Below are positions 5,278 through 7,974 of a stretch of 64,000 nt of DNA, piece after piece (position 1 is the stretch's first letter; every line of letters starts with the position of its first letter). Position numbers and translations under genes: made by a program. The DNA comes from Octopus vulgaris (taxonomy: Eukaryota), in contig OX597835.1 in assembly GCA_951406725.2 (NCBI GenBank), positions 40,486,001 to 40,550,000 on the forward strand, read 5' to 3'. Under the pieces are notes generated by a model. It was not told the DNA's origin, did not search any database, and saw only the letters and a program-made list of their open reading frames with translations.

Positions 5278-5823
5278 TTAACCCTTCAGCGCTTAAATAG
5301 GCCAGATCCAGCCTCTCACACTTATCCTGCAATGTCATTCTATAAATAAACAATCACATCATCAAAATCTCTTAGCTACAAGATAACACATGATTAATTC
5401 AAAACAATATAAATAAAACTATTGCAGCGTGGAAGGTGTTTGTAAGCCATTTAAGAAACACACAAAACTGTTAGATTCACTTCAACATATAAATTTAATT
5501 TGTCAAAATATTTTCATTGCTTTGAGTCCGCAACCTGTTCACTGACAAAACTGAGATGCAGCACAAAGTTTTGTCAGTGAACAGGTTGCGGTCTGAAAGC
5601 GATGAAAATATTTTGACAAATTAAATTTAAATGTTGAAGTGAATCTAACGGCTTTTGTGTGTTTCTTAAATGGCTTATAAACACCTTCCATGCTGCAATT
5701 GTTTTCGTTCAAGCACACGATCTTAGATCAAGTCACTCGCTATGCAAGTACATCTCCGTAATAAATATAAATAAATGAATAAGAATTCCATTTCACTGAA
5801 TAATCTGAATGTTAAATGGTTAA
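5278..5823. mobile_element. Second TTAA MITE family, interrupted by the hammerhead palindrome
   Basis: ttaacccttcagc...taatctgaatgttaaatggttaa; related copies near 10825-11036, 11212-12458 (split by a LINE) and 32620-32842. Confidence 0.6.
5570..5620 (+). ncRNA. Type I hammerhead-like ribozyme with G3-C8 core variant (mirror copy on - at 5499-5549)
   Basis: Stem I TTTGTCA/TGACAAA, core GTGAACA, stem II GTTGC/GCGAT, GAAA, palindromic stem III AATATT. Confidence 0.55.
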
Positions 5824-5936
5824 ATGATATTTTTTTTTTTTGAAGATGCTGATGAAGAATGTTATGGCCATTATATTATTTTATATTTTGTATTGCTAAA
5901 AGGTTTTATCTTTCCATCACTTTTATTGTAAAACAG

Positions 5937-6032
5937 CTGTCAAAGTTTGTTGCTGCCGAGAGAAACAAGCACACCATCTACCCTCCAGCCAACGAAGTGT
6001 TTTCATGGACTCAGTTGTGTCCCCTTAAAGAT
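5937..6032 (+). CDS. UNG: UNG exon (96 nt)
   Basis: aaacag/gtaagt; LSKFVAAERNKHTIYPPANEVFSWTQLCPLKD. Confidence 0.95.
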
Positions 6033-6537
6033 GTAAGTTAAACCCTCTTCACTCCTCCTCCCCAATCCCTCCTCCTCCCTCTCTTTAATGGTGTCTTTCA
6101 GACAACACTTATATAGAGTTGGTCCTTCTTAAAATTCCGCCGAGGTCGATTTTACCTTTCATCCTTTCGGGGTCGATAAATAAAGTACCAGTTATGCACT
6201 GGGGTCGATGTAATCGACTTAATCCGTTTGTCTGTCCTTGTTTGTCCCCTCTGTGTTTAGACCCTTGTGAGCAGTAAAGAAATATATATCATCATCATTT
6301 AGCGTCCACTTTCCTTGCTCGCATGGGTTGGATGGTTCAACTGGGGTCTGGGAAGCCAGAAGGCTGCACTAGGCCCAGTCTGATCTGGCAGAGTTTCTAC
6401 GGCAGGATGCCTTTCCTAATGCCAACCACTCCGTGAGTGTAGTGGGTGCTTTTTACGTACCAGGCATGGCTGGCGAACGGCCACGGTTGGATAGTGCTTT
6501 TTACGTGTGAGGCGAGGCTGGCAACGGCCACGATCGG

Positions 6538-7919: not shown

Positions 7920-7974
7920 ATTAAAGTAATCATTGTGGGACAAGACCCTTACCATGGCAAGAACCAAGCTCATG
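7920..7974 (+). CDS. UNG: UNG exon (55 nt) with catalytic water-activating loop
   Basis: tttcag/gtaaga; IKVIIVGQDPYHGKNQAH(G), containing the GQDPYH motif. Confidence 0.96.

Follow-up and report, generated by a model that had tools for sequence, protein, structure and literature searches.

A Penelope-like element family of Octopus vulgaris with a family-wide, probably compensatory G3-C8 hammerhead core

The palindromic insert at 5415-5762 of the 64,000-nucleotide stretch of Octopus vulgaris DNA analysed in this study (the window) is made up of two stubs from the 5' end of a Penelope-like element (PLE), a short one and a tailed one, joined head to head. The hammerhead motif that it carries belongs to a repeat family, here termed family A, in which the core pair G3-C8 replaces the usual C3-G8, and is a hammerhead variant rather than a canonical CUGANGA member. 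Homology to the PLE hammerheads and family-wide fixation of G3-C8 are considered very probable. The fuller reading, in which the head-to-head pair of PLE 5' ends carries a likely compensatory G3-C8 swap and a motif that would cleave weakly after U17, as a dimer or helped by the element's protein, with the window copy inert, is judged fairly probable as a whole.

The palindromic insert and its hammerhead motifs

An earlier note on this DNA had described a near-perfect palindrome, and this was confirmed: the arms, of about 138 nt each, pair at 93% (5464-5552/5567-5655) and 94% (5415-5467/5653-5705) around a spacer of 14 nt, and the palindrome folds into one hairpin (z = -33) that none of 200 shuffles equalled in stability. 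The extent given there, 5421-5699, was too short, as the insert spans 5415-5762, its right arm bearing a tail of about 57 nt. Arm comparison identified the left arm (5415..5552, minus strand) as an inverted PLE 5' end with a short 3' end at about +36 of the ORF and no tail. The right arm (5553..5762, plus strand) comprises the PLE 5' UTR, the hammerhead and the first 31 codons up to a tailed 3' end at about +93, and matches the parent pLTR end in locus L122 at 88.5% over 209 nt. The ORF start (5670..5762, plus strand) contains one stop from decay and opens with the same codons as the ORFs of L121 and L122. The 3' ends of the copies fall into two groups, at +34/35 and +93 relative to the ATG at 5670, and the tail is the stretch between them (5706..5762, plus strand).

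The insert is flanked by a 12-nt target-site duplication, the same 12-mer being present at 5406..5417, where its last 3 nt are common to the arm end, and at 5764..5775 (both plus strand). It interrupts a MITE-like host repeat with TTAA ends (5278..5824, no strand assigned, ends placed from the sequence), which is found whole at about 10886, 11286, 12505 and 32682 of the window. This TTAA-ended repeat is older than the insert and lies within a UNG intron. The earlier placement of the insertion in a MITE upstream of a UNG exon is therefore retained, the distance of 240 nt being corrected to 238 nt between 5699 and the exon start at 5937. The exon (5937..6033, same strand as the right arm) was assigned as UNG-like by motif match, with more UNG-like motifs at 7938 and 17350; a 32-aa piece of it alone gave no Pfam match. 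Pairs of the 5415-5705 type, which make up over half of the sampled copies, would form long hairpins in host transcripts, and these would likely be substrates for A-to-I editing or small-RNA pathways.

The three-stem type I hammerhead topology, open at stem I and with a short palindromic stem III, was found as the note had quoted it, any one strand reading as a hammerhead in one arm only. The right-arm motif (5570..5620, plus strand), recognized by sequence reading and by a structural descriptor, has a 7-bp stem I (5570-5576/5614-5620), G3 at 5577, C8 at 5582, an extra G at 5584, a 5-bp stem II (5585-5589/5599-5603), GAAA at 5604-5607 and a palindromic stem III at 5607-5612, followed by U17 at 5613, after which the cut is predicted. 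Its mirror copy in the left arm, which the descriptor also matches, occupies 5499..5549 of the minus strand, where G3 is at 5542. No other site in the 64-kb window matched the descriptor when positions 3, 8 and 9 were unconstrained; across 30 dinucleotide-resampled windows there were six matches of any kind and none with stems as long. An Rfam scan returned no hammerhead match and 11 sub-threshold ones, mostly miRNA hairpins. Four CUGANGA-like sites from a loose scan (15089, 53980 and 61100 on the plus strand, 62290 on the minus strand) were all rejected by a stricter descriptor. Stem II of the window copy is CpG-decayed and C11.1 is lost; within the UNG-intron transcript the motif would be trapped in a 130-bp hairpin, and the window copy is predicted to be inert.

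The parent element and fixation of the core

The parent element was found through a pattern for the recurring sequence that continues past the tail. A search by GIY-YIG family recovered other PLE families, and the parent was in none of the 13 stretches examined from it. Loci L121 and L122 have the arrangement pLTR-ORF-pLTR+tail, the ORF starting at the ATG of the arm (5670 in the window), and the ORF of L122 and L217 contains YVDD, DKS, a linker Cys motif and a C-terminal YIGET segment. The parent ORF itself had no Pfam match; among 30 of its aligned relatives, RVT_1 was matched in four and GIY-YIG in four, and comparison of the parent with an element positive for GIY-YIG/RVT_1 gave an E value of 7e-9. 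A PDB search yielded weak reverse transcriptase (RT) matches only, and the closest named protein match of the parent family is from Octopus vulgaris (54%). The link to PLEs, proposed earlier from the hammerhead type, is thus substantiated by a parent with RT and C-terminal GIY-YIG endonuclease motifs whose first codons are held in the arm. As in PLEs, the pLTRs hold the ORF start, occur in direct or inverted arrangement and have an optional 3' tail at one end. The non-LTR retrozyme class was rejected, copies of the approximately 210-nt repeat unit being single or head-to-head with no head-to-tail tandems. L217 has 1,025 open codons and is 97.7% identical to L122; with family copies 98% alike and one of them open over 1,025 codons, the family was recently mobile. 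The parent pLTR is about 1.1 kb long (L122:4675-5580), with long TACA-type microsatellite tracts upstream of the hammerhead.

The G3-C8 swap, noted earlier in the window copy, proved to be fixed among the genomic copies. The family A core pattern has at least 5,011 exact matches in the genome against none for a control, a lower bound in that one subfamily with a different loop II is missed by the pattern. The first 100 of these matches comprise 95 G3-C8, 3 G-T, 1 G-A, 1 C-C and no C-G, under a pattern that does not permit T at position 3. When 119 arms were collected by anchors outside the core, G3 was present in 118 and C8 in 111, and each of the columns U4 G5 A6, A9, G12 A13 A14, A15.1-U16.1 and H17 was kept in 115-119 of the 119. 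The stem pairings hold as well, the most frequent stem II (57 of 101 parsed) being a fully paired 5-bp Watson-Crick helix with G10.1-C11.1, and single arms fold into stems I and II in structure prediction. Subfamily-level changes affect none of 42 core/stem columns compared with 13 of 78 other UTR columns (p = 0.004, columns sorted by eye); those that do occur lie before stem I, within loop II and in the UTR that follows the motif. Loose-end consensus lines in contigs carrying three other organism labels also have G3-C8. The expectation that CUGANGA descriptors would miss the whole family is upheld, literal C3 and G8 being absent from its core.

The 3-8 pair among relatives and the question of cleavage

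That the swap represents covariation and not decay was argued earlier from its presence in both arms. This argument carries no weight, since both arms were copied from one master; the claim itself gains support from sister families, whose motifs sit at the matching position upstream of homologous ORFs in the same genome. Family B, with 3,751 matches, is C3-G8 in 97 of the first 100, and an older relative of it shows the canonical core where still readable; for family C, with 2,105 matches, 89 among the first 100 are U3-A8. Among metagenome PLE loci with related RTs, a sense-strand motif was found in 29 of 76 with positions 3, 8 and 9 free (two matches on the minus strand, none in five shuffles); 28 of these are C-G and one is U-A, so that all pair 3 with 8, many of the 76 loci being near-duplicates and the independent lineages fewer than 29. 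A Watson-Crick 3-8 pair was found across families A, B and C and the metagenome relatives, in three states only, with the caution that two altered bases pair by chance one time in three. In a quick-search RT tree of 21 stretches, drawn from elements other than family C, family A is the sister of C3-G8 family B (SH-aLRT 98) among C3-G8 elements; given this nested position, G3-C8 is likely derived. Judged from these sequence comparisons, the swap is likely compensatory.

Other core changes were observed in the same clade. In young family B, which has intact 1,312-codon frames (L197:1353-1400), 91 of 100 copies carry C at position 9, and A9 is retained in an older B subfamily; metagenome locus L221 has C9 too, as do a few copies of family C. 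Family C (L356-L367) has a 3-bp stem I and a 4-nt palindromic stem III, and shows C3 opposite A8 in 7 of 100 copies, above other changes, possibly an intermediate lineage. The C9 of family B and the C3-A8 of family C, taken as sequence patterns, may indicate that selection on catalysis is loose in the PLE clade. A related metagenome PLE (L220:4965-5020) has a canonical core but U15.1-A16.1 in place of A15.1-U16.1. L135 has a possible U3-A8 motif at about 724, and L213, considered as a fourth core type, was revealed by its relatives to be a decayed C3-G8 family.

The type I hammerheads of metazoan PLEs (Cervera and De la Pena, 2014, PMC4209133) resemble the present motif, in the parts of that paper available, in their position in the pLTR upstream of the ORF, in an extra base between 9 and 10.1, in G10.1-C11.1 and a palindromic stem III, and in the occurrence of motif pairs on opposite strands. 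They differ in that all 56 representative motifs of Fig. S3 begin CUGA or UUGA, and in an extra base given as H in the consensus compared with G in family A. The hammerhead core pair C3-G8 was established via engineered swaps, and the natural forms in print, within the literature covered, are C3-G8 and U3-A8. Natural U3-A8 hammerheads have been published (Perreault et al., 2011, PMC3088659), including that of Schistosoma Cercyon (PMC4209133); they indicate that the 3-8 tertiary pair covaries naturally, and family C is such a case. G3-C8, in contrast, needs two transversions, reverses purine and pyrimidine and is not listed as natural in the available parts of PMC3088659 and PMC4209133. No natural G3-C8 hammerhead was found in a literature search of incomplete coverage, engineered ones only (PMC3884650, PMC11167929, PMC8495972), nor is one mentioned in the accessible portions of PMC6765202, PMC6155905, PMC11014351, PMC7229834 and bioRxiv 10.64898/2026.07.22.740005. 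A family with fixed G3-C8 offers the missing natural control for the hammerhead core pair, and three paralogous families with three pairs in one genome form a set in which to ask whether selection on PLE hammerheads favours cleavage. Ribozyme counts across genomes that rely on CUGANGA or YUGANRA are too low, by at least 5,011 motifs here.

Self-cleavage of the family A motif after U17, predicted by analogy with engineered ribozymes, is given a modest balance of probability. Within the available parts of the reports concerned, the engineered double mutation C3G/G8C brings back part of the cleavage of a PLE hammerhead that needs its protein (PMC11167929) and G3-C8 partly restores hammerhead activity in general (PMC8495972); G3-C8 was stated to be weaker with C17 than with G17, as data not shown there (PMC3884650), and the family A motif has U17. 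No read-end pile-up was seen at the cut site in one standard-library RNA run carrying another species label, 6% of which was examined; this run, uninformative on activity, covered the stub equally on both strands and the ORF at a depth of 0-7. Likewise, 5'-truncated copies show no enrichment of starts at the cut site: five of 34 distinct copies read by eye start within 1 nt of it, about the number expected from an even spread. As copies run through the intact motif, the template RNA was uncut. RNAcofold of two arms gave no stem III dimer, stems I and II being swapped instead.

These observations bear on an alternative, considered rather unlikely, in which the PLE origin is the same and the motif no longer needs to cut, persisting as a binding or translation-control fold or through youth alone, with G3-C8 reached by drift or for its shape. 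The lack of a cleavage footprint in the RNA run and in the 5'-truncated copies is consistent with this, as are the presence of C for A9 in L221 and in 91 of 100 copies of family B, the C3-A8 minority of family C, and the report that hammerhead mutants insert normally in vitro (PMC11167929, in part). However, U4, G5, A6, G12, A13 and A14 and the Watson-Crick 3-8 pair persist in all families seen, the pair is described for the active hammerhead conformation (PMC3884650, in part), and the anole PLE ribozyme likewise lacks a read-end signal yet cleaved in vitro with protein (PMC11167929, in part). In the preferred reading, selection on the parent lineage would keep the hammerhead fold. Tentatively, and with less confidence, the preferred reading may be extended: family A would be the first natural hammerhead family fixed for G3-C8, active in a recently mobile PLE, its clade having explored C3-G8, U3-A8, G3-C8, C9 and U15.1-A16.1, and the head-to-head stubs, in their thousands, would be traces of a two-ended insertion, with the two cut target ends primed from different internal starts and the template being sense RNA that is capped and uncut.

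It is quite improbable that an overlapping signal drove the swap, a splicing or promoter constraint having fixed G3 or C8 and the partner having compensated or followed. A polypyrimidine-CAG is present at G3 and CAG-G at C8, each CAG resembling a splice acceptor, a branch-point-like ACTAAC with YAG stands 20-40 nt upstream of the motif in the parent and in 1,026 matches, and the Drosophila virilis Penelope intron ends at helix I (PMC4209133, in part); yet no splice joint occurred at these CAGs in the RNA run, a weak point in that the stretch examined excluded the upstream exon, and short copies start at the upstream YAG with no upstream exon common to 73 copies. Practically negligible, and ruled out by the parent element, is a DNA transposon of foldback/MITE type, its inner repeats resembling a hammerhead by coincidence. 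The window copy alone, as a near-perfect palindrome with a target duplication, would suit that class, but fixed terminal inverted repeats are absent, arms are variably 5'-truncated, single copies make up 39 of 89, the arm corresponds to the 5' end of an ORF with RT and endonuclease, and relatives carry canonical hammerheads at the matching place.

Head-to-head pairs and their insertion

The 89 position-ordered copies comprise, besides the single ones, 50 head-to-head pairs. A short copy was joined to a tailed one in 46 of 47 classifiable pairs, and tail joined to tail in none; after removal of duplicated loci, an over-strict step that dropped 33 of the 89 loci with shared flanks, the figure was 23 of 24 (p = 2.6e-8 versus independent choice), and for the top-scoring palindromes 25 of 26. 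Outside (TA)n, 25 of 32 pairs have a flanking match of at least 12 bases, 1-3 of microhomology included, while mismatched flanks used as a control matched at 9 bases or more in 1.7% of cases; shared flanks were present in 3 of 17 single copies.

The right-arm 5' start (5553..5556, plus strand) reads G-A-G-A on comparison with C/T-A-G-A in the parent, and 30 of 73 short copies open with G in place of the C or T of the parent, although some of these Gs could stem from the other arm. As seen at window 5553-5556 and L122:1300-1325, short copies start with the extra G at the A of YAG. A conserved exon upstream of the short copies was sought; the longest candidate had one genome-wide match, and beyond GAG nothing was common to the 73 copies. 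The extra 5' G may mark the point where capped transcripts start, or else a splice acceptor that follows a tiny exon; for the right arm of the window, a transcription start with a copied cap G is likely.

In what we infer to be the simplest reading, the element's protein would make a staggered cut in AT-rich DNA, about 10-12 nt apart, reverse transcription would start at two sites in the element's own ORF (+34 and +93), one per target end, uncleaved capped sense RNA would be copied as far as its 5' terminus, and the resulting two cDNAs would be joined at their ends into the palindrome. Alternatives to the capped-RNA model are an extremely short first exon or the antisense self-priming proposed in PMC3846280. 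The strict short and tailed pairing, the approximately 12-bp duplications and the extra 5' G provide testable constraints on the unexplained head-to-head insertions of PLEs.

Similar features are known, from the available parts of the reports, in Anolis Poseidon PAc (Frangieh et al., 2024, PMC11167929), which has two 3' ends inside the ORF defining a tail, AT-rich targets, an uncut RNA template and no read ends at the cut site. There, however, G3-C8 is an engineered double mutant, and the start site was reported not to differ between target strands, whereas family A pairs are almost always short with tailed. The inverted pLTRs of Adineta Penelope (Arkhipova et al., 2013, PMC3846280) and Neptune/Nematis-type PLEs (Craig et al., 2021, PMC8557442) are also described, in the portions available, as head-to-head with a tail at one end, 8-10-bp target duplications, a pLTR with the first codons, a Cys linker and (TA)n targets. 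Unlike these, family A has ORF-less pairs as over half of its sampled copies and a tail of about 57 nt compared with 30-40 in published PLEs, and its extra 5' G speaks for capped sense RNA, in contrast to the antisense-template self-priming favoured in PMC3846280.

At L039, L041 and about 20 further loci on G000:C1, one identical truncated pair recurs with the same flanks, having been multiplied as part of a larger repeat. L127-L131 belong to another PLE family, separate and very young, in which many RT/GIY-YIG frames of 781 codons are identical.
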